From: Dipteris shenzhenensis | Taxonomy: Eukaryota | Length of the DNA stretch: 64,000 bases | Reading direction: 5' to 3' (one strand) | Assembly (NCBI GenBank): GCA_047967505.1 | Contig: CM106538.1 | Shown here: positions 10,722 to 63,500 of the stretch, piece by piece | How positions within the stretch are numbered: position 1 is the stretch's first letter | Layout of the letters: every line of letters begins with the position of its first letter | The notes under the pieces: generated by a model | Databases searched by the model: none | Told to the model about the DNA's origin: nothing | What the model saw: the letters and a program-made list of their open reading frames with translations, nothing else | Made by a program: the position numbers and the translations under genes

Positions 10722-10729
10722 AGAAGCTC

Positions 10730-15318: not shown

Positions 15319-15559
15319 CTGCCAATTTTCAATTGTCACAGATTGCCTATATCCTTGCATTCATCAATTTTACACACAACTTCAATATGAACCAAATTAA
15401 AAGCATGCCCATTACAGTAGCTACCCTGCAGACCTTACTTCAATTTTGATGGCATGCAAATTCGATAAGAATCACGAGCGTTGCTAGGTCCCTTTTATAC
15501 TCAGTAACGTAAGAATTGCACACTAAGATCTAATAAAACATTTAAGTGGCTAAGCTTAC

Positions 15560-15946
15560 CGTCAACATCCATGTGGCATTCTCAACTTCCTGAGGATTTG
15601 ACTTCACATAGCGATGATTGTAAGTACATCCACTATGCATATCCACTTTGTGATCATCCCGTAAGTGAGCCACAAGGCTAGGAATATCTCCTGTTACTGA
15701 GCACTCTGACCCAGCATAAGGACAGTTATAGGGCCTGAAGGAGCATTGGGCCTCATGCTTCAACTTGCTGTAGTAAGGAAAAATGTCCTGACATCCCAAA
15801 GTATTATATCTACAGGGCATCTCAAGAGATTCTGCAACCTTCTCCAGAGCTAGGCATCTGATGTTTCCAAGCTCATATCTACAAGTGGGGCACCTGTTGT
15901 GCACTCTTGTCTTGCAGGCTGAACACAAAGTATGACCATTGGGACA
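15560..15946 (-). CDS. SINAT2: SINA E3 ubiquitin ligase, coding exon 2 (rest of RING, SIAH zinc fingers)
   Basis: CPNGHTLCSACKTRVHNRCPTCRYELGNIRCLALEKVAESLE...NATWMLT. Acceptor ACAG|TGT and donor ACG|GTAAGC; 387 nt, phase 0/0. Confidence 0.97.
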
Positions 15947-15970
15947 CTGTAACATAGAAAAGCACATAAG

Positions 15971-16006
<36 letters not shown>

Positions 16007-30500: not shown

Positions 30501-30834
30501 TGCACATTGCCATCACATCATGGGATTAGGATGAGACCATTCTTATTTTATGGTCCTGTATACAGTAACTGTATATTGCTGTAATTTTTATTCTTTTCTC
30601 CCCTTTAGGCACATTGGCCTTTAGGTGGGAGGTTGTTGGGGTAAAGGCACATTGCCACCCCTTTATTAAAGTTAAGACATCTATGACTGTCTTAAGACAG
30701 TCATAGGATAAAACCTAATCCTAATAAAACTAATGAGTTTGTGGTGTGGCTCATCACTTCACACCCGCACATTTGGAGTTCTCTCTCTTTCTCACTCTCT
30801 CCCTCTTGCTCTTCTTCCCCCTTCAGGCCCTTCA
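24573..30834 (+). mobile_element. Intact, very recent Ty1/Copia LTR retrotransposon (6,262 bp; Tnt1/Tork-like)
   Basis: LTRs 24573-24773 and 30634-30834 (201 bp, TG..CA, identical by eye); TSD TTAAC (24568-24572 / 30835-30839); PBS TGGTATCAGAGC 24776-24787; PPT AGGTGGGAGG just before the 3' LTR; uninterrupted polyprotein. Confidence 0.98.
26425..30534 (+). CDS. Copia Gag-Pol polyprotein (1,369 aa from MASGG)
   Basis: CCHC CFYCGKKGHVKSKC, protease LDSGAS, HHCC plus integrase D-D-E (HTDLC/SDNGGEY/SERMN), RT YVDD, RNase H TDSDYAG..EAEY..CDSQSA..ADLLTK. Copia domain order. Confidence 0.97.
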   Translation: MASGGSDSSILNIKKLEGAHNYALWAEQCLNVLLLKKISKPIRVKGVKPSDMAADDWEELDLSARAAIMLTISDTFVFNVQAEKTSYGLWQRLEELYAQKSSASKVYWLKKLVDLRMKEGTAMTSHLSEFNAIFTQLIAQGLNLDEEFKATFLLCTLPESWDTFKTTLSNSNVTLIYADVESSLLMEEMSRKNNASSKSSNALQVQDRGRTQQKGRSASESKSRSQSRGKKDIECFYCGKKGHVKSKCFKFIRDQKAKKAETKDARNGSKGKGKAKADDLDAVNVAAEDSDSDIHDVLCSSAVIAHALVIDGHDMHTWLLDSGASFHVTPHREWFTSYTGTHGVLHLGNNYACQIAGIGSIQIVFSDGRIFMLDGVRHVPQIKKNLISTGLLDDSGYHTTFGDSKWVITDGQAIVAEGFKSDTLYPLYVSSVGNHVVAITELPKVSLWHSRLGHTSVKGMQELSRLGYLPSLSFSDLPTCDHCIFGKHSVTPHKRRTPQNRAPLDLVHTDLCEMPQLSLGGAKYFITFIDDATRKVWVYFLKHKGDALDAFKKFVAQVENRTGCRLKCLRSDNGGEYVSHAFVQFCQAKGIKQELTAPHNASQNGASERMNRTIQEKVRCMLSYAALPHGFWAEAVQTTVHIINRSPNKALELKVPEEVWSGKPPSYKHLRVFGCECFAHVRKELRTKLDPKSIRCIFMGYGDEGEMGYRLWDPVKRKIIRSNDVIFKEDSVHKEPVQPVEYKSIIYDDVGQQRMPIYMQQQTAADNPVQEGIQAENQPDNFANDAPLDMPADGAVEQPDMVVQPPVMHEEQAGQQPNPEHFVRRSTRVQRPPARFVPGANNVADFIMLTDCGEPSSFKEAMGRTEKKKWEKAMQSEMDSLLQNDTWDLVQLPAGRKVLPCKWVYKVKVDSNALPRYKARLVAKGFKQEKGIDFDEIFSPVVKMTTLRAVLALVAHDDMDLCQMDVKTAFLHGDLHDEIYMSQPEGYAVKGKEQLVCKLKRSLYGLKQAPREWYKKFDAFMQSQGYHRCETDHCLYTKRAKDGSLMLLMLYVDDMLIASKSQHEISALKKQLHKSFDMKDLGDANHILGMRITRDRSKGLLFLSQKEYIDKILQRFKMEGGKSISTPLPPHLKLSSKDSPRSDDDKAEMAKIPYASAVGSLMYAMVATRPDIAFAVGVISRYMANPGKRHWEAVKGVLRYLKGTKDLCTCYGRQDALVHGFTDSDYAGNAYNRKSTTGYIFTFAGGAISWVSRLQKCIALSTTEAEYVAATEACKEAIWLTRLVGDLGITGDMPVLHCDSQSAIMLAKNPVFHQKTKHIDVKYHFIREVLEDKRLELVKVHTDDNPADLLTKSLPTERFAHCHHIMGLG

Positions 30835-40044: not shown

Positions 40045-42300
40045 AATAAGTTGTTGACTTCTTATGTATTACTGAGTAGATAAATTGAATTCCTTGATCT
40101 GACATGATTTTGATTGGGCACCCAAATCTACATGTGATTTTCTCATATAGGAACCTTGTTGTACTCATGCTATGTTACCCCTCAAGGATCTCGCTTCAGC
40201 CCATTTCGTGATGTAGTCCATTGCCACCAAAATGTACTTATTACCTCTTGGGTGTGTGCAACCTTGAATGGACCTATGGTATATGTCACACTTGGAGAGT
40301 AGAAGGTCACTTCCCCATCTATGAGCCCCCAAATGAGGAGCCCATGGGGGAGGTGCACCATATACGTCTCAGAAAGGAAGGGTTGCCACATGGGCAGCAT
40401 GCAGGCTGCCATGTGGACAGCATAGAGAGAAGAACCAGCCTGCCATTGGTGGGCTGGAGAAGCTGTGAACAAAGGGCAGGAGGGCCCACATCCAGGGAAG
40501 GTTTGTACCTGGACCAGCAGCATGGGCTGCCCCAGACCCGTGTTAGCCCTTTGTCTGGAATGGCGTTCTAGATGTGGAAACACGTTCCGTGGTAGCTATG
40601 GTATTGTGCCCAGAAGGGACTAGGTAATGGATGCAGAAAGGACCAGAAACAGGCACGTTGGAGGTAGGCCAGCAGCAGGCTGCCACGTGACCGGGTTGGG
40701 CAGAAAAGCCAGAGACTGGATCAGCCTAGTCTGTGGGAAAGTCAGGCAGGTCTGTTGGGGTTCCAGCATATAAAAAGGCCCCATTCTTGGGGCATCTTAT
40801 TCCATTGTTCCAGGGTCCTTACGCCTCAATTTGGGCTGCCACCACTACAGAAAGGGAGATCTAGAACAGCAGCAAGAGTCTTCATCAAGGGGCTGCCTGC
40901 CGCAGGGGTCCACATCTAATCAGCACCCTGCTGATAGAGGGTGTCAATTTTACATCAGGTACACTCCTCTTTGGATTCTTTATCTTCGATGAGAGACAAT
41001 AGTATGCTCCATAATGGGATGAAACCAAGTATATGAATGATCTTGAAAATAAACTCTTGCAGTAGAAGCATCCATCTAATCAATCTTGGTTTCATGATTG
41101 TTTTTTGATCAAACAGAATGATGCTTGGTATAGAAAACACGAATGGGTTACCCATAAATGGTGCCGAAACTTCTGAACAATGTACATAATGAGTATCAAC
41201 GCCTTCGCCTAGATCGCTTACGGAAACTACTGCTTCAACTCATTCGTTGTTTGACATCTCTTGCAGAAACTAATGCTTTGACTCATTCGTTGTTCAATTC
41301 AGACTTCGTTTCCGGTCTCATAAGCTAATGCACGGTTCGGAGCTGAGGAATCCCACGAATGAGTGAACTTGCTTGACATTGCTTGGCTCCTTCATTTTCT
41401 AAATGGAGTCAATCTCTGATTTCTCTGTCAATATCCCTCCGCTTGAAATGGTGTGTCCCAACAAAACTCCTGAAAAGACACAGGATAGGCGCTTGTATGG
41501 GTTGAGGGAGATTCAGGTCTCCCTGCATTTCTGGAACACCACCTTTAAACAGTGTACGTACATTGGCTTCTTACTGTACACTAAAAAGTAATCTAGGAAA
41601 ATGTCTACAAATTTGCCAACGAAAGGATTCCACCATCAACCTTTGAAACGCGGCTAGTGCATTCTTCAACCCGAATGGCATTACCTCGCTTGAGTATGCC
41701 CCCATTGGGTAATGAAAGTGGTCCTTTGTTTGTCTCCTTCGGCCAGTGTGATCTGATTGTAACCATTGTATCTGTCCTAAACGAATACATCTCGTGCCCC
41801 ACCACTTTGTATTGTATGCTATCCCTGAAGGGGAGTGTAAAAGGATGGTCTTTGATGGTTTGTTCATTCAGCTTCCTACAGTCCACACACTCCCAGCTCT
41901 CCATTCTTTTTGGACACAAGGACGATGGGGAACAACCATTCAGTCCAATCCACCACACAGATAAATCCTACCCTTAATAGCTGATTAATTTCAGTTATGA
42001 CCAACTTTGCATAGTTGGGATTCATTTGGTATCCTGTTGAGACATCTTTGTATTGCGAAAAGAGTTCCTAGGCTTGCTTGATGAATTCATCAGGCAATTC
42101 CTCGTTGGTATGTATCAGCTTAATTGAGTTCTTCGATGGCTTATCCCTCAGTGATTTGGCCACAGCCGTTGATTCTGCTGATGTGATACACAGGCTCCTT
42201 CTTTATTTCCATCTTTCCTTCTTCTTCAATAATATCCTTTAGAAACGCTAATTTTGACTTCTCTTCATCCACTGGCAACTATGTTGCTACTCTCATGGCA
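40045..42300 (-). mobile_element. Decayed Ty3/Gypsy pol (RT, RNase H, integrase) with an LTR fragment inserted at about 40291-40954
   Basis: CVDCRKLNEQTIKD..FTLPF, VMPFGLKNALAAFQRLM, KPRLIRWMLLLQEF, RFLYEKITCRFGCPIKIMSDQG. The insert matches the reverse complement of the LTR ends at 23339 and 37574. Confidence 0.88.
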
Positions 42301-42899
42301 TCAATGGTCGCTACTGACACAATATACCTGTGGTAGTTTTTTTGGGAAGGATTGACAGAGAGAAGGGCAGAGCGCAGGTGCATATGCCCATAGATGAGGG
42401 CTTTCAGCATATCATTGTTGCTGCCTACAGCAGTTTTGCCAGTTTTGTACACCAAAGGGGCCCTGTTTATAGGCTGCCATGGGGGGTCGGCAGACTCTAA
42501 ATTTGCCCCCGGCTGAACCTGTGGAAATGGGTGGCCTGCTGCAAGGTACGCAACGCATACAGACGCATATCACACCAAATCACCAAGTCATTCGACTTGC
42601 ACATGGAAGTTTCCCTGTTGTCCCTGTGGTGCAGATGCACAACATCACTCACAGACAAATTTGCACGGAATGGGAACCTCAGGAAGGTATTCCCAACACA
42701 TGAAACACCTACTAGCGATGAATTTGATGTGACGAGATGTCGCAACTTGAAGCAACAGCTTCAATCTCTTAAACTATGAAATAAAAAACAACTTGTAACT
42801 CCCTGCAGGATTTGCAAAGCCCGATGAAAATTACTGCATCTTCTCGAAAACAAAATTAGGATCACTGTAACCCCGCGCTAATTCTTACATAAATCAAAT

Positions 42900-43470
42900 G
42901 ACGGTCCGAATAGGGCGCTTTACTTGAAACAAGGGACACTCGGACATTCTAAAACTGGGGTTTTATGAAAACATAGCATGATAGAAATACACCTACGAGC
43001 ACAAGCATTGGCCAAATCTTCAATCTTCCGATATCTGCGCACGGAAATACCTTTATTGTGGGAGTCGGACATCGCATCGGATTCACGATTGAAAATGTCG
43101 AACGTTCCCATCTCGTGATGCAGAGTCTGCTACGTTGGAGAAGTTCTCCTCTATCATCTGGCAATGGCCAAACGAATCTGAAGCCATTCTTCAGAAGTAT
43201 ACCTGACTCATCGCATGACTACTGACAAAGGGTCTCCAAAAAATCCTGTTCAAAGTCCAGTGCATCGCCCGCCGGCTGACTTTCCAAGCTCCCAAAGACG
43301 AAGAGAGAATCCACCGATTAGACGAAAGAGAAAGCTGGTCGACCAGATGGCGATGCGAGGACCCTTCAAAAAAGTAACCCAAATTAAGTTCTCTTCGTAT
43401 CTCACGGAATATACTCTTTACCATCATTCTTGGTTTCAAGATTTGGTGTCAAGATTCCCACGTGGGCTAA
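42900..43470 (-). promoter_or_regulatory. Candidate promoter / first exon of the SINA gene
   Basis: CpG-retaining non-TE island. It has a palindromic G-box CCCACGTGGG at 43457-43466 with an overlapping TGGGCT site-II motif, pyrimidine patches on the minus strand, and donors CAG|GTATAC (43202) and AAG|GTATTT (43050). Confidence 0.5.
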
Positions 43471-44432
43471 TCTGTGGCTTAGCCTCGGTTCTGAAGAATC
43501 CATTGCTAGAAAAAAACAAGGGGCACAGGGTGCCGACATCAAAGAATAAAAGTTTTTTTTTTAAATTTGAAGAGTGACTCATTTTTTGGTCAGAATATTT
43601 TCGAGTTGGAAATTTAAATTAATTGAAGGAAAAAGGGAAATTTATAACTTAGCTCAAAGAAAGGTATAAGCTATGAGGAGCCTTAAAAACCTGATATTGA
43701 AATGTTTGATTGTGCTAGTATAGTGAGACGAATCTTGTAGATTACATCATGTAATCATATATTGTGACTAAGTAGTAAGAACTTTGATGTTGTCGAAGAA
43801 GTTGATCATGCTTTGTTTATAGGGTTTTTGAATGGGTTCGATATTTGGACTTGCAGTTTGGCTGCTACACTACTATTGTTGATCTCATCATTACTATGAC
43901 CTGTGAACGAGTTAAAAGAAAGTAGGTTAGATTGTAGCCATGATTCAATGTTTAACACCTTCAAAGAAACCTTCAAAGAGAGAGAACGCATACATGATTT
44001 CGTATGCAATTTACCTGTATTTCAATTAATGACCTTATCGTTTGGGTCTTTGTTTTTTTAATTGTAGGATGTTGACTTCTTTCCTATAAAATACAACAAG
44101 ATTTGGTTAGTGTTATCGAAACTTTGCTAGTGAAGAGAATTGCTTGTTTAGTAAAAGTAGCTATAGTTCAATAAAAGTTAAGATGTGAAAGAGAGGGAAA
44201 TAATGTAAGCAAGCATTGATGCGAGTTAGTTATAAACTAACATGAAAGGATTGGTTGTCAATCGAATTATTTACGAGCACGCTTGAAGGGATCGATTGTT
44301 GATATACTTGGTATTAATAGAAATCGAGCAACTTACCGATTATCTTAACCGAGGAATAGGAATCTGAAAGTCCATTTTTTCGAGCTATCTCAAATTCAAG
44401 TTCCAAGTTTCCAAGTATGAAGTTTTCTATTG

Positions 44433-47400
44433 TCAAGTTTCTTGTGTCATTTTGAATGAAGGCATATATGATGGCGTTTTGTATGATAGTATAACTGCGT
44501 CATGATTTGACCAGTAGATCGGTATGTTATTGGCAACTGATTCTGATAGTGGTGCATTTGTCCATATATGATCTAGGAGTGATTTATAATTGGTTGTTGG
44601 TAAGTTGTTTCCTAGTACTAGATGATGATTAGCAGACATTAATGATTGTAGTGTTCTCTGTTCTTTACTATTTGTGAGCATATCAATGTTAAAGTCTCCA
44701 AGGATGAAGGTTACAGAATTAGTTGATATTGTCTTTATCTTGTTGCTCAGTATTGTTAGGAAAGCTGATTAGTTACTGGTTAGTTACTGGAAGGTGAACG
44801 ATACATTGCTATGATATGGAGTAACTTGTGTCTGGTAGCCTGTAATGTTGTTTCGATGATGTCATAGTCGGTTGTTGTTTCTATGAGTGCTTCTTTTAAA
44901 GTATATTCATTGTCATAGAGAAGTGTTGTTGCGTGTTTACTAGGAGCTATGATAGATTTGTATTTGTTGTTGCTAGTAGTGAAGCATGTTGTTAATTGAG
45001 GTGTGTTGACTTCTGTTAAACAAATGATGTGACTATATTCCATAAAGTAATGTGCTTTTAGATCGTTTGCGTGTGCTAATAAAGAGCGAGTGTTTAACGT
45101 CAATATATTGTGGTGACCTGCAATGAAGTCTTGTATTTGTAACATTGAAAATTGCCACGAGGATTCTGTTAATAGTCGTTTAGTTTCTTCTTCAACAGCA
45201 TTGTCCACATGAAAGTTCGAATCTGTAAGTGATGATAGTAGGTATAAGTGTTCCTTTGATCTTATACGTGATAGTGCAGTGTATGTTAGCCCATGCCTAG
45301 TAATGTTTGCTGGGCAGAAAGCTACTTGTTCTAGAGTTAAACCTTGTGAGTAATGTATCATACGAGCTGCAGCTCTTTGTATTGGAAATTGTTTTCTGAT
45401 TATTGTATTTGCGTTGTGGTGTCCTATTTGTATCTCTTTCGAGATAGGAAAGATGCATGTCCAATTATGTTGTATGCAATCTGTATATAAGTTTGTATAT
45501 CGGGCTCGTGTTTGTGCACCTACACGTGGTTGAAGGAATTGTATCCAAATAATTGGATCGTTCGTATCTGTTTTTTTTTATGCACGAAAGTAGCCGTCTG
45601 CTCCGTTAACTAGTTCGTCTGTTGTGTCATAATTTCCTGCACACAGTTCTACTAACATTGATGGCTTTAACTCTAGCGTTTTATGTAAACCAGTTGTTTT
45701 GTTTGGATTATTTGGTAACGTTATGCTTGTTTTAAAATGTTCGCTATAAAAGTCTTTTGCTTCAAAGACGTGAATTTCACCTTGGGTTTTTTCGAAAACG
45801 ATGTTATTGTGTTGGTTTGTAGCCTTTTGAGTGTAGAATAAGTGTGGTATTGTCAAGTCATCTGGAGGTTCGCAAAAACATGTTTCATTTATTGTATTGA
45901 TTTCTTCCTGTGTTTGTTTGTTTTTCCCAAATTTGTTTAGGATATTTCACAAACTCGGTGTCAGTTTGCCACATAATTGTGAGAGTTCATAGTACTTGAA
46001 ATTCTTTGTCCAGATGTTTGTAGGCAATATACCTTCTCATGCGAATATCCACCTATCACATATGAGCGGGATTTGATATAAGTCACCAAAAAAGAAAACG
46101 TGCACTCCACCAAATGGTAGATGTCGAGCGTGTTTAATTGCGCATAAATGCTTGTCTAGTGTTGTAAGCATTCATGCTCCTATTAGGGATATTTCATCTA
46201 CGACTATTGCTTGCAGTTTAGAGTATGCTTTTGTGAGTGCATCTAATCGTTCATCTAGTATTTGTGACTTTTCTCTTTGGTTGATAGGAATATGTAAAGC
46301 TGAGTGTAGTGTCATGCCATCTATATTGTATGCAGCTTTCCCAATGTATGCTAGTTTCAGGACTTTCAGTTTCAATGGATCAGCATATTTATGTGAATTG
46401 AATTTTCTTGTTAGGAATTCAACGAGTACCTTTAATAGAGTTGTTTTCTCGGTACCAGCTCCTCCTGTGATGAATGCATGTATTTGTTCTTCCTCTTGGT
46501 AAGTTAACTTGAACACAATGTCATTGAAAATTTGCCACATTTGTGGATTTAATTGTCTTATTTGTTTGCAGTACTCATTTGATGATTGAGCAACTCCTTT
46601 TAGTGTTAGTAACTGGTACGGTGGCATGTTTCATTTAGCCTTTTTGTTGTCTTCTTCATAGGTTAAGTTATATAACTCAACATTTGTAGCATTAGTTAAC
46701 TTGATATAGTTCTCATGAAAGTCGGTTGGTGTTGAGTTTATGAAGTTGTCGTCATCTTTTGACAATTGATGGGCATTTTCTTCAAAGTTATTCTAGTTAG
46801 AGTCTTCTTTGTTACAATAAACATGTGTGTATTTCTTTACGTTATTTGTTATACTATCAATGTGGAGATTGTAGAGGTCTTTCCACGTTGTATGTGAACC
46901 TTTCAAATTTTCTTCGTCCTCGAAAAGGTAAATGTAGTAAGACCATCTCTCTATAGTGGTTTTTGGGGTCACAGTTTTTGTTGTATTTTATTGAGCTTAT
47001 GATTCTTTCTTTTTTTCGATTCTAAAGCTCTCATTGTAATTATAAAATGCAACAATGTCAAATAGGGTACAGTTGTCAAGGCAAGAGGGACGTGCCTTGT
47101 AATTTTTCTATAATGGATGTACACATTATGTCCGTCGAATTGTCAAGGAAGGCTTGAAGCTCTTAATTACGTTTCAACACAAAAGATTGGTCTTCTACAA
47201 GTGCCGTGTTAATAAATTGGAATGATCTGCAGGCATGGTATAGGGGTAGCGAGAGTATTATAAACACTGCTTGTTCAACAGACATTTGTTGTGTGTTTAA
47301 GAATGCTGATTCAAGTTGCTTGATACACGTAGCAGCATCACTGTGCTTGTGCTTGCATTTCTCTATAATTGTGTTAAATGTTTTTGTCATTGTGTTGTCG

Positions 47401-50400
47401 CATTTTGTGAGGTATGATGTGCAGTATGATGCTGCTGCATATGGTTCCAAGATATATTGGGTGTCCATATTAGATTTCCATAGGTTTATAAGCTGTGGTG
47501 AAAATGGATTGGTGCGTATGTTTGTTAGGCTATGTTTTAAAAAGACTCTGGGATGTTTTAATGTTGCAGAAATTGACTGTTTGTATGCACGTTCATCTAA
47601 GTGTAAGGCAGATAAAAATTCTTCGAATGTTTTAATTTTATTGTCTTCAGTATATGTCTCTAGAAATTGGAGTATTTCTTTCGCTTTTTCAAGCTCTTCT
47701 TTCTTTATGTCTTTGACAGGTACTAGAATCATAGTTTCATTAATTGGTGGTTGAGGAAAATTGAATCTACATTTTGTTTTATGTTTTTTTCGACATGTGT
47801 GTGTGTGATAGTGTGTTTGTATATTTCGTATTTCTTCATCGATAAGTTCTCTATCGATGAGATATACTTGTCTATGAACTTTATAATTCCATCATTGTTT
47901 GATTGGTTGTATGTAGGTGCATTTTTTACCCATAGTAAGCCATGTTCGTGTTCGCTTCCGCGTGATTGAAATTCCGTCACAAAGAAAAAATCTTCAACCT
48001 CACAGTATAAATGTTTTGTATGTTTTAGAAGTTTTCTAAGTGAAGAAGTTCTATGTGAGTAGTAATGTGCACATGTAACGGGATCTTGTCTAATTATTTT
48101 ATGTATGTTATCTTTACTAGTATCTTGGTTATCATTGTCTTTTGCTAGTATTTGCAAGGCTTTTAAAGAGGTTCCCAAAGGCGTTCTCCAGTAGTCAACG
48201 TCTCAAAAAATGTAGGTGGACCAAGTTGACGTATCATAGTAAATAGTTTCTTTCGCAATTGTTCAAGGTAGTCTGGTGATGTACGTAATCGTTTCAAGTC
48301 ACGGTAGCCTATGTCTGAACATAATATATGATCGAGGTTTGCTTTTGTTTTAACCTCTTTTGCATAAATGATTCTATTTTTTAGCTTTCCTTTTCGAAGC
48401 CCGCGATCCATGAGGATGATGCGATTTGTTGGATCATAACTTTGATCACCTTGAAAAATATATTAGTAATATGCGTAGCGAATCGTTGGTCTTGGTTTGT
48501 TAATTCCCATTGTGCTATTTTTTGGTAGCTAAGTCTTTCTTTTATTGTTTTCCTTCTCTCATTGCCATAGAATAATTTTGGAAAATTTAGTTCTTCGCAA
48601 TTTTCGTCTTTGAAAAATCCAAGTGGATGGTATTCTTGTGAAGGTGCTATTGTTATAATATTAGAAGTGGTGTCGAAAAATTCACCTGAGTCCATGAAAC
48701 CGTGTACAAGTGTATCTGTGCAAGTATCGACGGCCTCTTCGTTAGAGATTTCAATACTATCATCGCTATCTTGGTGGTTGTCATGTGTTTGATTTGGTTT
48801 GTTCATTTCATAACTTAGATGAAATTGTGATATCCATAAATTTGAGATCTTAACTTTGTACTTTCTATAAAGTGGTGTTTATGTAAGAATGTGTAAAGCT
48901 TTCATGACATTATATGGTTGAATGTACCCACTTGTATAAATTGATTTGTATTCAAGTTTACGCTTTATTGCCACACCTATTGTCAATGTATGTTCTATTG
49001 GTTGTGGAAGTATAGTTTGTATGATATTGGTATTTGTAGGCACATTAATAATACTACCTTTTAGTAAGTATTGCCCATAGTTCAAAATTTGGTGTATTTG
49101 GCCAAATGTGTTTTGAGGAGCGACTAGTCTTTCTTCTAGTTTGCTCAACTTTGAGATTTCTGGCAACTCTTTTTGCATTTGGATGCCGTATGGTGATGCG
49201 TATTTTGGTATTTTGTCTTTTCGGGTTTGCTTGTAGCATTCAGTGTAAATTTTTGTGTCTTCTTTTTCGCTACATGTCAGTTGCATTTGCAATTCACGTT
49301 CAAGGAAATCTATTCCTTTTGAGGAACGCTCTTTTAATTGAAAATCAAACGACAACCGTTCGTAGCAAAAGCAAGGATGTATAGGACAGTCTAAAATCTT
49401 CTTCAAGTAATTCGTAACAGCATGTTGGTCACAATCATGAATGATATCAAGCCAAGGTTCAAGTTTTTCAATACATGTTTCTTGGATATTTTGTTGCTTT
49501 AAAGATTCTATGTTTGCAAGTTTTTTCTCTTTTTGAAGTATATATCATAAGTGTTTAACTGCAAAGTAGGGTGTTGTGCTTAGTTGTGGGTGTTCTTTTA
49601 AAAACATTGAGCATACTTGTAACTTGGACTATTGTTGGTTCTGTCGAACTAAAGAGATTAAATCATTATTCACATCATTGTTCCATGATGTACGGATTCT
49701 TTTATCATGTGCTTGATTTATCCCATTGTCATAAATACTTGCTGGCTTGGAATTTTTATGGATACTTTCGAGATGATTGTATTCTTGTATAGCATCTATG
49801 TCCACAATAGGTTCATAGTGACCATTATTCTGAAATGTATCATAGTATATAAGATTACATGTATAAGAATTTTCAAACGTGTACTTCAAAAATGGGTGGG
49901 CTGTTGAGCTAGACCAAATAGTAATGTTTATATTAAGTGCTTTTGCGATCCAATACAATATTATTAAGTCACCCCATAACCCGCCATTGGTGCCGTTTGT
50001 AGCCATACTTGTTAAATATTAGTTAATAGTATCAATATTGTGCATGGTGTTCAAGTAATTGTGTGTCGTGTACTTGCACAATTTGTAGTGCATGTTCAGT
50101 TTGTTGGATAAGTTCTTCTTTAAATTTTGAAGCAGCTTTTTTTCGTATTTCTTGGCTTGTGTAAAAAAATTTTAACATATAAGAGATACTATCAAAAAGA
50201 CAATCTCCGACATTGTAGCTATAGTTTGGTACTCTTACTAATCGTCTTTCATGTAATATTTTGTCTAGTATGGATATACTTGTATTTGTATTTGAGCATA
50301 GTGTTACATTGTTATAGTTGTTAGGATCTTTCTTCTCATGTTCTACTTTTTTATTTTTTCGGACTTTACAATTTTGAATTTTTTCATCTTTTTCAAAATT

Positions 50401-51436
50401 TTAAAATTTTCTTCACTTTATTTTTAATAATTACTGGTTCATAGTGGCCGTTATTTTGTTGTGTATCGTAGTAAACTAAATTCATTTTCTCTAGATTAGG
50501 GTTGATATTTATTTGAAGAAATGGTTGGCTTGTTGCATGTGACCAGAGTATTATGTTTTTTTGTATCGACTCTGCTATCCAATGTAGCATGAAGAAGTCA
50601 CCTTTTAAACTGCCGTCAATAACGCTTTTAGACATGTTGATGTAGTATTCGTCCATGGTACTAATTTCATGCAACTTGAAAAGTTCTTGGTCAAAGGAAT
50701 ACTGTATAGTATTAACTGTTGTAATATCTGAGTATTAAAATGTGAGTTGTAACTGTTTAATAGCCTCGAAGCGTACTTGTTGAGATGTAAAACGTTTTTC
50801 AAGCAAGTAAGAAATACTATCAAAAAGTGAATCTCCATCTATATAATCATATTCTGGGATTCATAGTAGATTGTCTTTTGCTAATTGCATGTCCGATTGT
50901 GTTGTGCTTTGATCTTTGCATGTTGTTTGTTCAAAGTGTTCAAGATGTATTAATGGCTCGAAGTGTCCTGTATGTCAAGTTTGGTCATCTTATAAAATGT
51001 TAAAGGAAGGCATGTGGCATTTGTCAGTATATGTAATGTATGGTTTAATGTGAGTTGAAGACCACACCGTGATTGAACAAGCAAAACATCTTGCTAACCA
51101 GTAAATACAAAAATGGTCATCCCATAATCCGTTGGCTGAAGCTGGTAATCTCATACGGTGAAAGTATTCTTCTCTTGTATATACTCCATGTAAAGTTGAA
51201 AGTACATCAAGTGTCAAGAAAGTACGCATGCATGTGTTTGCATCGTGTTTTTTGTTTTTAAGAGCTACTAGGAAACTATCAATTATAATTTTACGTATGT
51301 TTGGATCAGATTGCTTAAAATCCATTAGAAAGCTTAAAGTATCAAATAAACAATCACAAGGTATGTATTTGTAATTTGAGGGGCGATGTAAGCCATGCAG
51401 GCTTAGGGCTCTGTTTATTCTATCCATGGCTTGCAT
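44433..51436 (-). mobile_element. Decayed Helentron/Helitron2-type transposase: 3x OTU - DUF6570 - HUH Rep - PIF1 helicase - AP endonuclease
   Basis: OTU-like repeats (DCLFD..W....IYW..ITVWS..GHFEP; GDSLFD..GHYEP; GDCLFD..LWGD..GHYEP); LEERLVAP..LKGSIINVP; RTSPDYL..IRQLGPPTFF.TLT; EFQSRGSEHEHGLLW; YCTSYLTK; FITGGAGTEKT, VDEISLIG, PFGG..GDLYQ, IHYSQGLTL, YTALSR; EEP endonuclease TLNTRSL..ICLTE..MYRSP..LGDFNID..LDHIWTN..WSNH. Many frameshifts and stops. Confidence 0.92.
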
Positions 51437-52299
51437 GTATACTTTTATTTGGAACCTGTAGGCAACAAAAAAGAACAAGATGTAATGCAGTTAAAATTTT
51501 ACTATGTAACATGTTGTTTAAATTAGAATCGGATACTAGAATAGTGACAAGTTAGTAAAAAAATAAAAGAAAATAGCACAACATATAAATTTGAATAGCA
51601 TTAAGTTAAAAGAAAATGTGTATGTACATGGTAAATTTACTTCTCACAACTCAATAAACAATATTGATAGATGAAGGTACAATGGTAAAGAGTCAATGAA
51701 AACAAAACACCATTTTACTAGGAACATGTAGCTGGGAAACATGGTAGATGTACTTCTTACAACTCAACAAGCTGTGTTGATGGGCCAAAGTACAACGATA
51801 AAGAGTGGCAATGAAAACCAAAAACCATTTTGCTAGGAACATGTGGCTAGGAAAAGAGTTCTAATGTTGAAGTAGATATGAAACACTCCTAAGGTGGAAA
51901 CAAAGATGAGGAAAAGAATCCATTTATATCTCATGCATCTCAGGTCCTATTTTCTATCCACGCTTTTGCCAAGCAATGTGAAACCTTTTAAATATTTGCC
52001 TTTGCATTCCATCTAGCAAATGTTTACTAGTTGTAGTAGATCTAATTTCCTCATTGGTCAATGCCATGACATGCCTGATTGAAAACTCACAAATAAGCAT
52101 TTGAATCTCAAACTTTAGCTTTGCACTCTCTCCCTCTGTTGAGTTTTTGTGCTCCATTGTTGCGTGATGATCTAGATCAATCAACAATCATCATGTAAGT
52201 ATTCTACCAAGTAGCACTAGTAATAAATCATAAAAGCTACTCATGCCATAGTAATTTTAAAAGAAGTATATTTAATACAACTGTTAGAATACAAAGTAA

Positions 52300-54682
52300 C
52301 ATATTAATTTAATATCGGCACTACCAACATCGATATCATTAAATAGCAAGCAAGTAAAAACTTATAATATCGTAGCATGGTATATATTCTCGCAATGTAA
52401 TATTGAAGAATAGTTTATACGAACAAATAGAGCAGTTGAACTTCTGAAAGATTAGGTTCAAGATATTCTTCAAGTCTAGTTTTGTGCAAATTTTATCTAG
52501 TAGATAGGACATTAACATTTTGAATGTTTTCAGATATGCTATAGATTTGTAGTAGTATAACTCTATAAAATTGTACCACTAGAATTTAGAATGGACTTTT
52601 AGTTATAAAATAACACTACAAGAATCTATGTAAACTCCCAAATGAATAGATTGTAAATAAATTTTAAATCTTAAACGAATCGTGGTGTTCATGACTTTTA
52701 CATTTGTTAACATCGATATTATTAAATAACAAATGAGTAGAAGCTTATTATCTTGTAATATAATATGCAGATTAACAATTTATTTTTAAGCTAGATAGTA
52801 TGTAAGCTCAACTTTTATAAAAAATAACATATGAGTTTAGCATTAATATTGTTAACATTTACATTATTAAACATCAAATAAGCAAAAGCTTACAATCTGA
52901 TAATATCATATATAAATGGAGTATTTATATAAGTAAATAGGATATCGATAAAATACACATACATTTAGAAGTCAAAAATTATAGTAAATAGTACTACATA
53001 TTTAATACTAGTATAAATTAGATGTACACTATGTAATAGCTATCTATCATTGAAGCTTCGAAACTCACATCATTTACTAATTACTAGTTAAAGAGATATC
53101 ATCAAGCTAATATGATCTAGAACATAAAACATGCAACAATATTACATAATCAAGATGATCTAGATTATCATTTATGATTACACATCTGATTGCTCATGGT
53201 GTACTAATTCTAGATAAAGTATATGTGATGCAATCTTTAGAGTGCATAGTAATATGTTAATTTAATATCAGTACTATTAATAGAAATATCATAAATAGCA
53301 AACAACTAGGGACTTATAATATCATAATATCATATATAATCTCACAATGTAATATAAAAGGTTATGTTATATAGAAAAATAAAGCAATTAAAGTTCTAAA
53401 AGATTAGGTGCAAGATCTTCTTCAAGTTCAATTTTGCAAAAAACTTATCTATTAGGCAGAAAATAAGCATTTTAAAGTTTTTTAGGTATGCTATAGATTC
53501 ATAGTAGTTCTATGACTCTAGAAAATTCTAGGATTACAATTTAAAATGGACTCTAGTTATAAAATAATGTTATAAGAATCTATGTAAACTCGCAAATGAA
53601 TAAATCGCAAGTGAATTTCAAATCTTGAATAAACCAATTATATAGTATTCATATCATAAATAATAGAAGAAAACCATCATGTAAACAAACAAAGGAGTGT
53701 TGAACTTTTACAAAAGACCCAAGTTTTATATATTCAAGATTTCCTTTTATACATTTTTTACTAGTTTAAGATTGAAGCTAGAAGAAAAAGAAGGTGAAAA
53801 CAAAAACATAATATAACTAAACTTCCAGGAAATCAAGTGTGCCATTTTTGGATAACTTTATATTCGATCAAGGCTTTCAAGACAGTGGCACGACACAGAG
53901 AGTAGTGGGAGCCTTAGGCAACGTACTTCACAAATTGTGGGTCCTTGTAATATTGAAGGCCTTCCCACAATTCATCCTGCAATTGATCCTTCTTTTGAGT
54001 AATAATCTCAGGTCGATGTTGTGGAACACTAAGCTCTTTCTCCAATTGATCAATTTCATGTACAATGATCTTAGGTTGCCGAGGAACCCATTGCGAAACA
54101 ACTTCATCTTCTATAGGATATTGAGTTGAAGGAACATCGTTGCTACCGTTGCTTTCCATATCTGTTTGTTCGTACTTTCATCAAGCAATATGTAAGTTTA
54201 GCATTAACTTCGTTGACATCGACATCATTAAACAACAAATGGACAATATCATATGTAGACTAACTATTTATATCTGAACTAGATAATTTATGAATTCACC
54301 ATTAATAAAAAATGATGTATAAGTTTAACATTAATATTATAAACATACATATCATTAAACATCAAACAAGCGAAAGCTTACAATATAATAATATCATATA
54401 CATAAATGGAGTGTTTACATAACTAAGTAGAAAATCAATAAAATGCACATACAATTAGATGTCAAAAATTGTAGCAAATAGTACTATATATTTAATAATA
54501 GTATAAATTGCATGTATACTATGTAATAGTTCTGTATCTTTGAAACTTTAAATCTCACACCAATTACTATTTACTAGTTAAAAAGATATCATCAAGCTAG
54601 TATAACTTAGAACATAAAACATGCAACAGCACCACATAACCAAGATGATCTAGATCATCATTTATGATCACACATCCGGTTG
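52300..54682. repeat. AT-rich segmental direct duplication upstream of the Helentron ORF
   Basis: 52300-52680 resembles 53251-53634, and 52820-53192 resembles 54310-54682. A shorter sub-motif recurs about six times. Confidence 0.85.
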
Positions 54683-56949
54683 GGAAGATCATTATCGAGA
54701 TGAACCGACCAGTAGGAATGAGCCATCATCTAGATAACAATCAGCTCTATTTGCACCTATGTACATGTATATGTATACGTGCATACTAAATCATAACGAG
54801 GTAATTCAAACCAACAAATGCGAGTTATCACCCGATTGTGATTGTATACTATCTAAATATGTACATAATTCAAAGCGAGATGATTCCAACTAGCACAAGC
54901 GAGCCATCATCTAGCTTTAAATGGTAAATATAAATATAGATTCCTCTTTCTCTCTCTTTCTCTCTCTCTCTCTCTCCCCTTTTTTTTCCCTGCTTTTTTA
55001 CATCAATCAAAATAAAAATATATAATTCATCTTGTTAATGTAACCGATCAATTAGTTTTGATTGATAGCTATATAATTGTACTATGTTCATTTGTTGTTA
55101 GTAAATGCTACTATCAAATTTCTACTAATTATTTATCACTAGCAAACATTATTATTCAATAATAAATAGTTACTAGCAAGGAATATGTTACCAACATAAT
55201 ACAAACTTAAAAAAACACACGCGTATACATATGCACATGCACGTATACATTATATATGTGGTTAACACAAGCCTCCTCCAAAGGAATGAACATGAAGTGG
55301 CTTACTGAAGAAGCTACAACTCTCTATCTCTTTCTCTCTCTCTCTCTCTCTCTCCTTCCTTAAAGATTCTGTATCAAGCTTACAATATTAAAACTCACTA
55401 TACAAGACTCTACTTGAATTGTCACCTAGCTAAGGATCCCAACTGTGAGCTCATTTTCTCGTCTTCATTTATTTTTTGAACTCTCTTTAGAATCCATCAC
55501 TGAACCCAACACTTGCTAAAACGCTTCCTTATAAATTCCACATATCTCACAAAGAACCTTATCATTCTAGGCCTCTCATCGATTCTCTTTTACTTGTCTT
55601 CATTATTACCTAGGTCTAGCAATAAACCTAGACTCAACCCCCTCATAATGAATAATACAATAAACGTTTCTGAAAAGAGAGTAGATATAATAAATAAATA
55701 AAACGAAAACATGTCACTCAAGATAACCAATACGAGAAAAACTTGTCAATAGAAATCTTAATCACAAGAAAGTTTGCTATAAAAGACTACATAGAAACAA
55801 TAACATGAAAATGAGTAAGCTAAACACTTTTCTTCAATGTTTTTTTCCACATAAGAATTCATTATATCTACTAATTTCATGCTCAACAAATGAAGGCTAA
55901 TGCGAAACTACTCAAAGCAAAGAGACAAATTAAAGACTACTAATTAAAGAGTATTAATGATACTTCCCAAAAACAAAAAAAGATACTTGTTTCCCACAAA
56001 AAGACTCCTGTCTATCTTTTCATGTCATGCCCAACAATAAAATAAAAAATTCTCTTTGCCTCTCTTTAGCCATTTCTGATCCATCATGTTGACATGCTAG
56101 GCTCACTGCATATTTGTAGTATTGACCTATTCAAAGTATGTGCTTACATATTCTTATGCATGCCTTTGAGTCCACAGCTGTGCAAGCTGCGATGCTATTG
56201 ATGAGCAATAAGCATGATTATCTGTTGTCACTCTTATTGATTTTCTCAGAGCTACTACATTTAAATGATCTAGGATCTTAAGAGATTTTGCACGTTAGAC
56301 AGCTGATCTTTATCCCAAATACTAGTAAGTTAAATTGAGCGATTCAAATACTAACTGCCTTGTTTGTGCGAAGCAAACACAAATTGGCATTCTTGTTTGT
56401 TCAGTGTCTTACATTAGCTAGTCCAGTAATTTCCCTTACCAACCATCGTCTATGACGATGTACCGCCAAGCCAATGAAGTCCTTCAATTCAAAGATGGAT
56501 ACCTCATAGCGAGCGATGATTTCAAACTAAACAACAGATTCATGTATCTGGGGAGGAAAACCTAGGAGACATAATCAAGCATAAACTTGGCATTAAATCT
56601 TCTACGTCAGGTCATGGTTTAGTTGTCTTTTGTGACTCGTGGTCATCGAATTCTAATACGCAATATCATTCTAAGATTGGTCTATGTGGTCTTGGTTGCT
56701 TGACAGAAATGCAATTGAACTTGCACGCGGTGCTCTTGCCGCACTCCTTTACGCTTGTGAAGAAGAGGACCAGGAGGAAATTAAAGCCGTGTTATCACAG
56801 TCTTCAACATCCATCATGGGAAATAGAATCTAATTGGACAATGTTGTCATCTCCCAACAAGACCTCGCAAGCTTCGGGCTGCTGACCCTGCTCCGCCATT
56901 TAGGGCTGCTACTCTTACTCTGATTATTGTGAACTTGGCATATGAAGAT

Positions 56950-58065
56950 GGTAATCCAGGGAGGATGGCCTTCATGAACAAGCTCCTAAGATGACACAGT
57001 GTCGGATTTGATCATCGTCCTCAACTACAGAGGAAAAACTCCACTAAAGTTTGCTCTACGGATCGGCTCCACTGAGGCTTGTAATTTTTTGTGGGAAATT
57101 TCCCTTTTATTAGCGATTCTTTTTCAAAAGATGACCCCGAAGAAGATAGCATTTTGCATTCCTACGCCAGGGGATACATTAACGATGTATCATTCGGGTG
57201 AACTCTGATGAAGAAGTTGGAGCCGGTGTTAGGATCGCTATTAAACTATGCCAACCGTTCCAGGCAATCACCACTGATGCTTGCTCTACAGTCGGGTCAT
57301 TCATAGGCTTGTCTTCAGCTGCTAGAGGTTGAAGGCATAAACGTAGATTTTCGAGATGAAGAAGAGAACTCTGCTTTACAACTCTATGGCCTGGGAGGCA
57401 CGGATGAGAGTCTATTTTTGACCAGTTGATGAAACATGCCAGTGTACAACAATTGCTCAATAAACGGAATGGATTGAAGGCCTCAGGACAGACTCCACTC
57501 ATGTCTGCTCTTGCAATAGGAAAGTCCAAAGCAAGTGAAAATATATTGGCAGAGAAGAGAGTGGAGGTCCATAGAAAGAATGTAAATAGAAACATTGTCT
57601 TGCATTTATTTGCACAAGGAGTCGAGCTAAGGTGGTGTGGAAAAAACTAATGAGCAAGGAAGGGGTGAGCAAGCACATCAAAGAGTGCAACCGCAGTGGA
57701 GAAATACCCCTCATGTGTGCATTGAAGAAGGGATGCATCGAGGCTTGCAGAGTGATGTTATAAGCTGAAAGCACTGAAGAAGGGATGCATCGAGGCTTGC
57801 AGAGTGATGTTATAAGCTGGAACCAATCTAGCAAGAGATGTAGATTCTGCTAGAAATAGTGTTCTCCATTGCTACGACGAGGGTGCGATAGATGAAGATA
57901 ATATCTCGAGAGTTGATGAGACATGATGGGGTAGCGGAGTGGATAAACAAATACAACAAATATAGACAAACTCCACTGATATGCACATTAACTAGCAATA
58001 GGTATGGGCAGGTGCATGGAGATGCAGCAGCAGCTACTGCAGATGCCCAAGTATTGCGCAACTAA
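56950..58065 (+). pseudogene. Ankyrin-repeat protein pseudogene
   Basis: NYRGKTPLKFALRIGSTEACNFL, ASGQTPLMSALAIGKSKA, NRNIVLHL, NRSGEIPLMCALKKGCIEACRVML, NKYRQTPLICT. Stops, frameshifts and a tandem duplication (57723-57767 = 57775-57819). Confidence 0.85.
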
Positions 58066-61264: not shown

Positions 61265-63500
61265 TGTGGGGGTTAAAGGTCACTATGCCTTTACCCCGGT
61301 TATGTACAATACTCAAACACATATAGAAATGAATGAAAAAGAAGATTAGGGTGGTTCTGCACCCACCAAAACTTGTGTGGCTCTCTGTTTCTCTCTCTCC
61401 CTCTTCCGTTCTTGCTTCCGTTGAGAGCACTCAACTGGTATCAGAGCCCGGGTGATCTAGCTGAGCGTGCGTGAATGCTTGGAAGCTCAACAGCTCTATG
61501 GGAGGAAATTAAAGCTCTGTGGGAAGCTTTGTGGGTGACTTTACTTGCATTCGAGTGTGTAGAGTCCTTGGAGGAACCTTTGGAAAAGTCACTTTGGCTT
61601 TACGAAGTGGTTTTGAGAGCCTGTTAAGTGTTTTCAAAGAAAAAGTCATTTTTGGAGCTTTTCCTTGTTCTATTCAATGACAGAGACTCCGTATTGACTT
61701 GTAGAGGCAACTATTGCTTGCTTTTGGTATCCACTTCACTTCAAGAGCTTGGAAACACTTTTATTCTTGAATCTAGGATCATTTCATTGGATTTCTGACT
61801 CACTGTTTCAATTCCTACGTTTTTCTGCCAGGTGTTGGAACTCAAGTTTGGAGCAACTATTTGCAGATCTGTCAGTTCCGGTGAACTCAGAAGGTCCTAA
61901 AACTTCTATGTTGCTCATCATTCGCACTCCGATGGAGTTTACAAACAGCTCTGTTTCCAAAAACGTTTTTCAGTCCGTGTGTTGGACCCAATGATTGAGA
62001 CCACAGTTTCCAAAACCGTCTGTCCCATTGCGTTCCGAATGCCCAAAAACCCCTATTTGTTAGTTCTTGTGTGATTCAGTGGAGTATTTTCAGAGTTATA
62101 GATCTCTGTGTATTTGATTTCGTCTCTCTGTTATGCATTTTTCATTCTAAGGTTTTGAAACCTTAGATTTATGCCACATGGCAGTGGATAAGTGTTGACT
62201 CCCATTTCTCACTCATCGGTTGGGATTTTGGAGTTCCGGCAGAAGAGAGATATTTGCAAATTTTCTTATTGAGTCTGATTATGCAATGGCACCCATGTTT
62301 TGAGGCATCTCTAGTTCTATTTTTAGTAGCGGTCTTTTTCGTGGGACCATGATTTCTTGAGCATATCTTATGGAGATCACTCTAGTTGTAGTTTGAGCCA
62401 TGTGCGCTCATTCATGGTGTGCATTGGGTTGTAGTGGATGATTTATAGGCCATTTGGATGCATTGAGATCCTTATTGGATGCGCTAATATGCCCAGATTG
62501 CCTTGTGGGATGCTATTTTTATGTATGCTTTGCACATGGATGCTATATTATGCTGAGGGACAGCTTTGACACATTGCAGGTGATGCACTAATAGTGTTAT
62601 GCTCTCTTGGATGAGATATTATTGATGCACATGCCCATGGACAGTGTTTATGCTTGAGCCATTTGGCACTTATTGGCATTTTGGATTGCCATTGCAGTTG
62701 GCATTTTCTTTTGAGCCAGATTTGCTCATATGGATGCATAGTAGATGCACATGAGTTAGCTGCATCTTTTGATGCTTTGAGCTTTGAGTTTTGGTGATAT
62801 TTCAGTCTATTGTGGCATACACATTTGGGTGCACCTGGTATTTGGTATGATTCTCTCTTGCAGGCACTAGTATTTGGGATTTTTCTTTATTTGCATCATG
62901 GCATCCTCTTCCATGTCTGAAAAGGAGTTTTTCAACGTTAAAAAGTTTGATGGGTCAAACTTTTCTTTGTGGAAAGAACAAATAAGGGATGTGCTTATTC
63001 AAAAGAAGCAGATTAAACCCTTGGCAGGGATTGAAGCTAAGCCTACAAATATGTCTAAGGATGATTGGAATGAGTTGGATGCATTAACAAAGTCTACTAT
63101 TAGACTTCATCTTGCAGAGTCAGTTTATTTCACAGTAGTAAATGAGCAGACTACGGAAGATTTGTGGAAGAAACTGTGTGCCAGTTATGAGAAGGAAACT
63201 ACCTCTAATAAAGTTTACCTCATGAAGAGGTTGTTTGAGCTACATATGAAGGAAGGGATCTCCATTGCTTCTCACTTGAATGAATTCAATATTATTTTCA
63301 GCCAGCTTCAGGCTCAGAAGATGAATTTTGATGCGGAGACTAAGGCAATATTTCTCTTATGTTCATTGCCATCCTCATGGGATACCTTCCGACAACTGTC
63401 AGTAACTCTGCACCTGGTGGAGTATTAAAATTTGATGATGTTGTGGGTAGCTTGTTGGCCGAGGAGATTAGATGGAAGTCTATGGATGGCAACAAGCAGG
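61265..63500 (+). mobile_element. Truncated Copia related to the intact element: 5' LTR 61265-61433, PBS 61436-61447, long leader, gag from 62898
   Basis: LTR start TGTGGGGGTTAAAGGTCAC resembles TGTTGGGGTAAAGGCAC; TCA-AC-TGGTATCAGAGC junction. Gag KKFDGSNFSLWKEQ...KVYLMKRLFELHMKEG..SHLNEFN..FLLCSLPSSWDTF is homologous to the gag at 26425; frameshifted and cut at about 63.5 kb. Confidence 0.9.

Follow-up and report, generated by a model that had tools for sequence, protein, structure and literature searches.

In Helentrons, a kind of rolling-circle transposon, an OTU-like cysteine protease has been known for about twenty years. In the excerpts available from three publications, the OTU domain lies upstream of the Rep-helicase and of a C-terminal apurinic/apyrimidinic (AP) endonuclease, recurs at this conserved position and keeps its catalytic residues (PMC4067079, PMC11417382, PMC6431247). 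A further deubiquitinase of Helentrons is the viral tegument-like deubiquitinase (VTD) domain. The available part of its description reports that the element DrT1 has two VTDs, that active and inactive copies exist, that 121 VTD-bearing Helitrons also carry OTU domains, and that the VTD was proposed to protect proteins needed for transposition (Erven et al. 2022, PMC9741609). Here we describe a 64,000-nucleotide stretch of DNA from Dipteris shenzhenensis (contig CM106538.1 of assembly GCA_047967505.1), in the following called the window, in which the remains of a Helentron begin with three tandem OTU units. An earlier note, made from the same letters without database searches, had pointed to the three units and to a Ser at the catalytic site of the middle one, and had correctly taken a single OTU in some Helentrons to be established. 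Comparison with relatives shows that the Helentron OTU module is often a conserved pair of a Cys-type and a Ser-type unit, which in the window is extended to Cys-Ser-Cys. The interest lies in this pattern at the level of the family, and an intact open reading frame (ORF) of a relative makes the pattern testable.

The units were revealed by three-frame translation of the minus strand between 49500 and 51600, and their exact positions were taken from a coordinate look-up (Table 1). From 51436 to 49794 the minus strand encodes three mutually similar units of about 150 residues each, in agreement with the motifs and positions given in the earlier note. Each unit, compared by tblastn with the whole window, matched only the other two (E 1e-12 to 1e-25), the remaining matches having E values of 0.17 or higher; the similarity between the units is far above chance. 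Units 2 and 3 are 41-46% identical, the C-terminal half of unit 3 sharing 45% of its residues with the corresponding part of unit 2, and unit 1 is 26-30% identical to units 2 and 3. With so little identity left between units 2 and 3, their duplication is an old one. Units 1 and 3 retain the set Asp-Cys ... Trp ... His-x-Glu, with the catalytic Cys of the N-terminal Cys box (D-C-L-F-D) encoded in both by TGT. In unit 2 the Cys is replaced by Ser, encoded by TCA, and the Trp of the GLWGD motif by Lys; the His is retained, and all three units have the C-terminal His box, in which the catalytic His is followed two positions later by an acid or amide. Since unit 2 has Ser for Cys, it is to be regarded as an OTU-fold domain and not as a cysteine protease. 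A possible start Met of unit 1 is located at 51436. The frame shared by units 1 and 2 carries four in-frame stops, two close to the end of unit 1, one immediately before unit 2 and one within it; the frame changes once between units 2 and 3 and once inside unit 3.

Structure models were prepared of unit 2 of the window and of both OTU units of L001, a related metagenome locus; the other two window units were assigned by identity (26-46% to unit 2; 34-38% between unit 1 and the first units of L001 and of two further loci, L002 and L003). The AlphaFold2 model of unit 2, obtained from a 36-row alignment, reached a mean predicted local distance difference test (pLDDT) of 92.8 and a predicted template modeling score (pTM) of 0.87. 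A Foldseek comparison with the PDB yielded 30 matches at E<=1e-3, with TM scores of 0.5-0.68, and the 31 matches listed were all OTU proteins (OTUD1, Otu2, the vOTU of the nairovirus CCHFV, OTUD3, yeast Otu1, DUBA). In the two-unit model of L001 (pLDDT 81.9, pTM 0.75) the first unit resembled OTUD3 (Z 13.1) and DUBA (Z 12.4) and the second OTUD1 (Z 13.1) and OTUD2 (Z 11.5); residues 168-190, which link the units, were disordered. According to the models the units are OTU-fold domains, and a check that had been set beforehand, the match to the OTU fold, thus came out positive. Three related proteins exceed the gathering cut-off of the Pfam OTU family PF02338 (23.3 bits): P0156 with 49.6 bits in two stretches, P0159 with 30.6 and P0002 with 29.8. 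A profile of the Cys-type units, searched against the PDB sequences, matched 25 entries at E<=1 (best E 0.004), all but one of them OTU proteins by name (the OTU of nairovirus polymerases, yeast Otu1, OTUD2).

Relatives were collected by an exhaustive profile search with the three units among 1.84 billion representatives, which returned 267 proteins at E<=1e-3, mostly short fragments from metagenome and read assemblies. A protein search with units 1 and 2 gave a single match, P0001; a search with unit 2 alone among proteins of near length gave 14 candidates, none at E<=0.001, and a single-protein scan of viral contigs found no locus. Nine metagenome loci were found with an alignment of the junction between units and were scanned in six frames; L002, L003 and L004 belong to one family, as do L008 and L009. 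Seven of the nine contain a Cys unit followed by a second unit, whose nucleophile position is occupied by Ser in six and by Arg in one. The proteins point the same way. P0133, which comes from another source, spans the end of unit 1, the linker and unit 2 (50956-50741; 49% identity over 72 residues, E 5e-15) and has Ser at the site of unit 2. In the junction-spanning fragments P0003/P0152, P0052 and P0095 a Cys/Trp-type unit precedes one with Ser; P0025, P0097 and P0148 contribute further second units with Ser, and the second unit of P0002 has Thr at the nucleophile site and, as in unit 2 of the window, Lys for Trp. Since P0133 and the second units of relatives carry Ser or Thr, the evidence supports the view, already taken in the earlier note, that the Ser of unit 2 predates the window copy and is not the product of post-mortem decay. 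As judged from these sequences, several related Helentron lineages share a conserved pair in which the first unit has Cys and the second Ser (or Thr); the intact ORF of L001 is among them. Ser in the second unit is not universal: L005 has Arg there, P0002 Thr, and the P0001/P0156 family discussed below Cys. In L006 a lone, decayed OTU unit with two stops (9995-10438) lies in a 20-kb locus with few long ORFs and is an isolated remnant.

The distribution of residues was counted over 219 unit rows, some of which are copies of one family. The nucleophile column, covered by 139 rows, contains Cys in 103, Ser in 19, Tyr in 7, Phe in 3, Arg, Thr and Leu in 2 each and Gly in 1. Rows with Cys retain the Trp (60/65), the His (35/36) and the Glu two residues after the His (28/34). 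In the Ser rows the Trp column holds Glu in eight, Lys in two and Trp in one, the His is present in 7/7, and the residue just before the Ser is Asp in 13, Glu in 4 and Asn in 2.

The Ser codons carry additional information. They are TCA in the window and in L001, TCT in L008 and L009, AGT in L003, L004 and L002, and AGC in L007. By single-base changes TCN and AGY can be interconverted only by passing through Cys (TGY) or Thr (ACN), and either family can be reached from TGY in one step. A tree of 26 rows places the loci with TCN (L001, L008) and those with AGY (L003, L005, L007) in the two subclades (support 92/90 and 87/84) of a Ser-type clade supported by 100/99. Unit 3, the unit closest to unit 2 of the window, still has Cys and Trp. 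Either Cys was replaced by Ser independently in both subclades and again in unit 2 of the window, or selection held Ser by way of a Thr or Cys intermediate. On either history the two codon families indicate that Ser itself was wanted at this site, which suggests that the Ser form was selected and is not simply broken; the presence of both families at a nucleophile site is a rare and clean sign of such selection. The Trp has been replaced in different ways, by Glu in the clade of L001 and L003 and by Lys in P0002, P0148 and the window, which fits independent changes.

Constraint on the Ser unit was estimated from the proportions of nonsynonymous (pN) and synonymous (pS) differences. In the second units pN was 0.388 and pS 0.723 for L003-L005, and 0.394 and 0.723 for L001-L008; in the first units the values were 0.236 and 0.618, and 0.354 and 0.734, respectively. 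By these estimates the Ser unit evolves under constraint; the synonymous differences are near saturation and some of the copies compared are decayed, so that ratios of nonsynonymous to synonymous rates are rough, a reservation that counts among those collected below. The trees place the window units less clearly. In a quick tree units 2 and 3 are joined (96 in the Shimodaira-Hasegawa-like approximate likelihood ratio test), and in the 26-row tree, which has few outgroups, both group with the Ser-type second units (98/95). If so, unit 3 would be an extra copy of the downstream unit that has kept its Cys. In approximately unbiased (AU) tests three groupings went unrejected: the Ser clade with unit 2 alone (p 0.56), the Ser clade with both units 2 and 3 (p 0.65), and the second unit of P0002 with the same two units (p 0.69). 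The trees do not settle one versus several origins of the Ser, and the codon families are the stronger argument.

The window is collinear with L001 well beyond the OTU units: 51430-44484 corresponds to L001 residues 37-2177 in at least eight frame segments. In L001 an uninterrupted ORF of 2181 residues (8380-14925) comprises OTU(Cys), OTU(Ser), DUF6570, Rep, PIF1 helicase and AP endonuclease, and because this ORF is free of stop codons the L001 element may have been active recently. The window contains the same succession, with Rep (HUH) and a PIF1-type helicase in one Helentron protein (35.2 and 52.7 bits, and collinearity with L001) and a C-terminal AP endonuclease, recognized as a Pfam remnant below the cut-off that aligns to L001 residues 2105-2177, the end of L001 itself scoring 42.6 bits. 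The array therefore stands at the N-terminus of a Helentron protein, as the earlier note had proposed, followed by DUF6570, Helitron_like_N, PIF1 and Exo_endo_phos matches. Twenty-one in-frame stops in the four main collinear stretches and at least six frame changes, together with the collinearity with intact L001, show that the window holds a long-dead Helentron with about 7 kb of coding remains; the helicase region has eight in-frame stops within its aligned stretch. To judge from its reading frames, the window copy itself is non-functional. Scans of 42000-57000 for inverted and tandem repeats, in which a single copy was compared, revealed no convincing element termini; the ends looked for in a Helentron are subterminal inverted repeats, a 3' hairpin and insertion between T and T.

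The DNA 5' of the OTU array is very AT-rich, with a GC content of 0.27-0.32 over 50-56 kb. Two directly repeated copies of about 115 bp lie next to each other here, at 51626-51739 and 51739-51854, and are 81% identical. A further repeat, about 440 bp long, is dispersed at 52240-52675, 52757-53192, 53193-53629 and 54245-54682, with 75-83% identity between copies. This repeat-bearing stretch (51626-54682) may represent non-coding DNA at the 5' side of the Helentron.

We give a probability of about 0.5 to the following reading: the OTU array is what remains of an N-terminal deubiquitinase module in a dead Helentron, in which the Cys units would have cleaved, the Ser unit would have been a non-cleaving partner and the third unit an old duplicate. 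The giant single protein of the Helentron would have had the order OTU array, DUF6570, Rep, PIF1 helicase and AP endonuclease. In the active ancestor the Cys units would have stripped ubiquitin or a ubiquitin-like modifier from the transposase, from host factors or from chromatin needed for transposition. The Ser unit may have been retained as a substrate trap, produced naturally by the change of Cys to Ser, that captured ubiquitin or chains of it, or it may have held the active unit; in this way it could set affinity or linkage preference. In the lineage of the window, the third unit would stem from an old additional duplication of the downstream unit. A deubiquitinase function of the Cys units is suggested because the VTD domains of Helentrons act in this way, cleaving K48, K63 and K11 chains, with inactive copies also present (PMC9741609, in the part available), and because earlier proposals for the role of the Helentron OTU, as far as the excerpts go, point in the same direction (PMC4067079, PMC2836005).

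Several observations weigh against this reading. The window pieces score only 19.8, 15.8 and 14.5 bits with the Pfam OTU profile (unit 1 15.8-19.8, the ORF 50032-50400 with the N-terminal half of unit 3 14.5), all below the cut-off; the units are therefore placed in the OTU superfamily (clan CA, papain-like) through intermediate relatives and through their fold. The 2181-residue ORF of L001 has no Pfam OTU match at E<=0.01. The Cys-type profile reaches known OTUs weakly (E 0.004-0.8), and the Ser-type profile matched no OTU among the PDB sequences. In the Ser rows the residue two positions after the His varies (Glu in three, Gln in three, His in one) and the Trp is lost, which fits a loss of catalysis and is silent on the binding of ubiquitin. 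The P0001/P0156 family has Cys in both units, and a Ser partner is therefore not obligatory. The careful 48-row tree leaves units 1, 2 and 3 of the window and the deep branching unresolved. According to the part of PMC9741609 available, the activity of transposon OTUs has never been assayed. A three-unit array occurs in none of the nine loci, seven of which have two units, one being cut at the start of the second unit and one having a single unit; more than two OTU stretches were likewise found in none of eight multi-unit proteins among 151, nor in 36 further proteins. One fragment, P0110, runs collinearly (E 9e-14) from 50680-50429, in the C-terminal half of unit 2, across the linker to 50325-50140, where unit 3 begins, and has a His without the Trp in its first unit and a Cys in its second. 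It is the sole fragment of this kind; at least one relative therefore has a junction of the unit 2-unit 3 type, and the triple as a family feature is weakly supported. The poly-OTU array claimed in the earlier note thus stands for the window and, as a tandem pair, for seven of the nine loci; as a rule of the family the triple is not supported by the relatives retrieved.

Arrays of one, two and three units exist, and so do both Cys-Ser and Cys-Cys pairs. The Cys-Cys arrangement is found in a sister family (P0001, P0156, P0157, P0160, P0161, P0170) with two tandem OTU units, both with Cys and Trp, joined by a linker of about 70-80 residues in which Asn, Asp, Thr and Ile seem abundant; this family suggests that tandem duplication of the OTU occurred more than once. 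Two large proteins from read and metagenome assemblies, P0090 (3176 residues) and P0155 (3387 residues), have a related N-terminal Cys-type OTU unit at residues ~294-438 together with Exo_endo_phos, RVT_1 and RNase_H, and resemble a non-LTR-retrotransposon-like polyprotein with the same kind of OTU. P0018, named in its source as an uncharacterized protein of Selaginella moellendorffii (475 residues), is a plant protein that has one N-terminal OTU unit of the family studied here and a C-terminal Rpb4-like match; it may be a domesticated or captured copy.

The alternative that survives best, which we nevertheless consider unlikely, sees the OTU units as processing proteases that cut the Helentron protein into OTU, Rep-helicase and endonuclease parts, as do the OTU-like proteases of some RNA viruses, with deubiquitination secondary or absent. 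In L001 the array is indeed fused with Rep, helicase and endonuclease in one ORF, the linker between the units is disordered in the model, and in the excerpt of PMC4067079 the cleavage of Rep, helicase and endonuclease subunits is among the roles proposed. No ubiquitin-like Gly-Gly site, however, was spotted in a by-eye reading of the linkers of L001 and L003; moreover, the nearest folds are cellular and viral deubiquitinases, and the VTD domains, which occupy the same position in Helentrons, act on ubiquitin according to the accessible text of PMC9741609.

Slightly less probable still is that the Ser unit is a working serine-type OTU with a Ser-His nucleophile pair, acting on ester-linked ubiquitin or on the polyprotein, so that the array would have three active sites and two chemistries. 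The Ser is specifically retained, in 19 of the 36 non-Cys rows and almost throughout the second-unit clade; its codons come from both families, with Thr, the one-step bridge, in P0002; the His is kept in every Ser row that covers it, an acid or amide precedes the Ser, and pN is lower than pS. The TCN/AGY split also resembles a pattern that Brenner is said to have described in 1988 for the catalytic serines of serine proteases. On the other hand, the third position of the triad after the His is not kept and the Trp is changed to Glu or Lys, and in papain-fold deubiquitinases a change of Cys to Ser normally abolishes activity, the resulting proteins serving as traps. Literature searches not aimed at this question turned up no natural OTU with a Ser nucleophile. 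The full form of this idea, a naturally selected serine-OTU in which Cys was changed to Ser several times independently and Ser-His forms the working nucleophile, for example toward ester-linked ubiquitin, is a shade more doubtful again; the case for repeated changes is made by the TCN and AGY subclades, by the TCA of unit 2 beside its Cys sister unit and by the Thr of P0002. If true, the OTU deubiquitinase fold would gain its first serine-type member, and with it a live example of the switch between Cys and Ser nucleophiles. Plain decay, with the Ser as a post-mortem change and the third unit as a neutral, copy-specific duplication, could appeal to the bad state of the window copy and to the absence of a second three-unit array among the loci and proteins retrieved, but it is very improbable and, as far as the Ser is concerned, largely refuted by the sequences: P0133, from another source and 49% identical across the junction, shares the Ser of unit 2, either Ser or Thr occurs in the second units of other families, units 2 and 3 have diverged too far for a recent duplication, P0110 shares their junction, and a decay of roughly 7% per site, a rough figure from the stop count, would make two specific changes in one codon very unlikely.

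Table 1. OTU units and other Helentron parts in the window, and the OTU units of the nine related metagenome loci
Feature	Position	Strand	Characteristics
OTU unit 1	51400-50927 (part listed as 50927..51436)	-	Cys type: PCDCLFD, codon TGT; GLWDD; GHFEP
OTU unit 2	50881-50417	-	frame of unit 1; Ser type: DGDSLFD, codon TCA; SLKGD; GHYEP
OTU unit 3, N-terminal half	50250-50035	-	Cys type: VGDCLFD, codon TGT
OTU unit 3, C-terminal half	50018-49794	-	shifted one frame from the N-terminal half; GLWGD, GHYEP
Linker and DUF6570 region	48879..49544	-	Pfam PF20209, 35.1 bits; collinear with L001 residues 321-888
Rep (HUH), Helitron_like_N	47729..48462	-	two frames; Pfam PF14214, 24.9 and 35.2 bits; tblastn of L001, 48-58% identity
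PIF1-like helicase region	45002..47101	-	Pfam PF05970, 52.7 bits on 46172-46630
C-terminal AP endonuclease remnant (Exo_endo_phos)	44433..44768	-	PF14529 22.5 bits, PF03372 19.3 bits, both below cut-off
L001, two OTU units			second-unit nucleophile Ser, TCA
L002, one whole Cys unit; contig ends 63 bases into the second			covered site Ser, AGT
L003 and L004, two OTU units each			second-unit nucleophile Ser, AGT
L005, two OTU units			second-unit nucleophile Arg, AGA
L006, one OTU unit			no second unit
L007, two OTU units			second-unit nucleophile Ser, AGC
L008 and L009, two OTU units each			second-unit nucleophile Ser, TCT

Apart from the Helentron, the window contains an open Copia-type gag-pol ORF of 1451 residues at 26179-30534 (plus strand) with gag, a protease-like barrel, integrase and RVT_2; more Copia fragments lie at 8037-8858, 20426-21151 and 62871-63428, and the region is rich in transposons. 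On the minus strand, a partial ORF at 15542-16123 encodes RING and zinc-finger domains of the SINA type and represents an E3 ubiquitin ligase of the seven-in-absentia class; it is probably an exon of a host gene. Rfam had no match in the window.

The array can be compared with several known systems. The nearest are the OTU-like cysteine proteases of Helentrons of the HLE2 group, which occupy the same position in the element as the array in the window. The literature on them, as far as the available excerpts show, speaks of a single OTU domain or gene, whereas the window has three units and its relatives a Cys unit followed by a Ser unit. For Helitron-like elements, our literature searches, whose scope lay outside the key reviews and the supplementary figures of PMC11417382, turned up neither OTUs arrayed in tandem nor a second OTU of conserved Ser type. 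The VTD of Helentrons is similar to the OTU array in that it is a deubiquitinase module within the Helentron ORF that is sometimes doubled; it belongs to a separate papain-like family with an active-site layout different from that of OTU. Moreover, in the part of PMC9741609 available, the multi-copy inactive VTDs are found in insect proteins outside a recognizable transposon context, unlike the conserved pair of putatively active and inactive units within a transposon described here.

With the cellular and viral OTUs (OTUD1, OTUD3, DUBA/OTUD5, yeast Otu1 and Otu2, the nairovirus vOTU) the units share the fold, with Z scores of 10.4-13.1 (ranks 1-34) and root-mean-square deviations of 2.2-3.5 A over 125-140 residues, and units 1 and 3 share with them the Cys box and the His box. 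They differ in sequence, being only 10-20% identical, in having GDC in place of the usual GNC, in the fusion of the repeats to a transposase and in the Ser of the middle unit. A precedent for tandem OTUs is LotA of Legionella, which has two OTU domains in one polypeptide; it is, however, a bacterial effector in an unrelated sequence context, and its description, in the part available, presents both domains as catalytic and contains no Ser unit. The logic proposed for the Ser unit is borrowed from another fold. In the MPN+/MPN- pairs Rpn11-Rpn8 and BRCC36-Abraxas an inactive copy of the fold is kept beside an active one as scaffold or binding partner; these proteins have a metalloprotease fold and are separate chains. 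The Helentron pair would add a case of a pseudo-enzyme paired with an active paralogue. Should the Ser unit turn out to read ubiquitin or to act as a serine hydrolase, it would provide a useful tool and define a new OTU branch; otherwise the result is a modest refinement of Helentron anatomy. The occurrence of OTU in Helentrons, the doubled VTD module and the inactive VTD copies were already known; what appears to be new, as far as our literature searches go, is the tandem pair of a putatively active OTU and a Ser-OTU.

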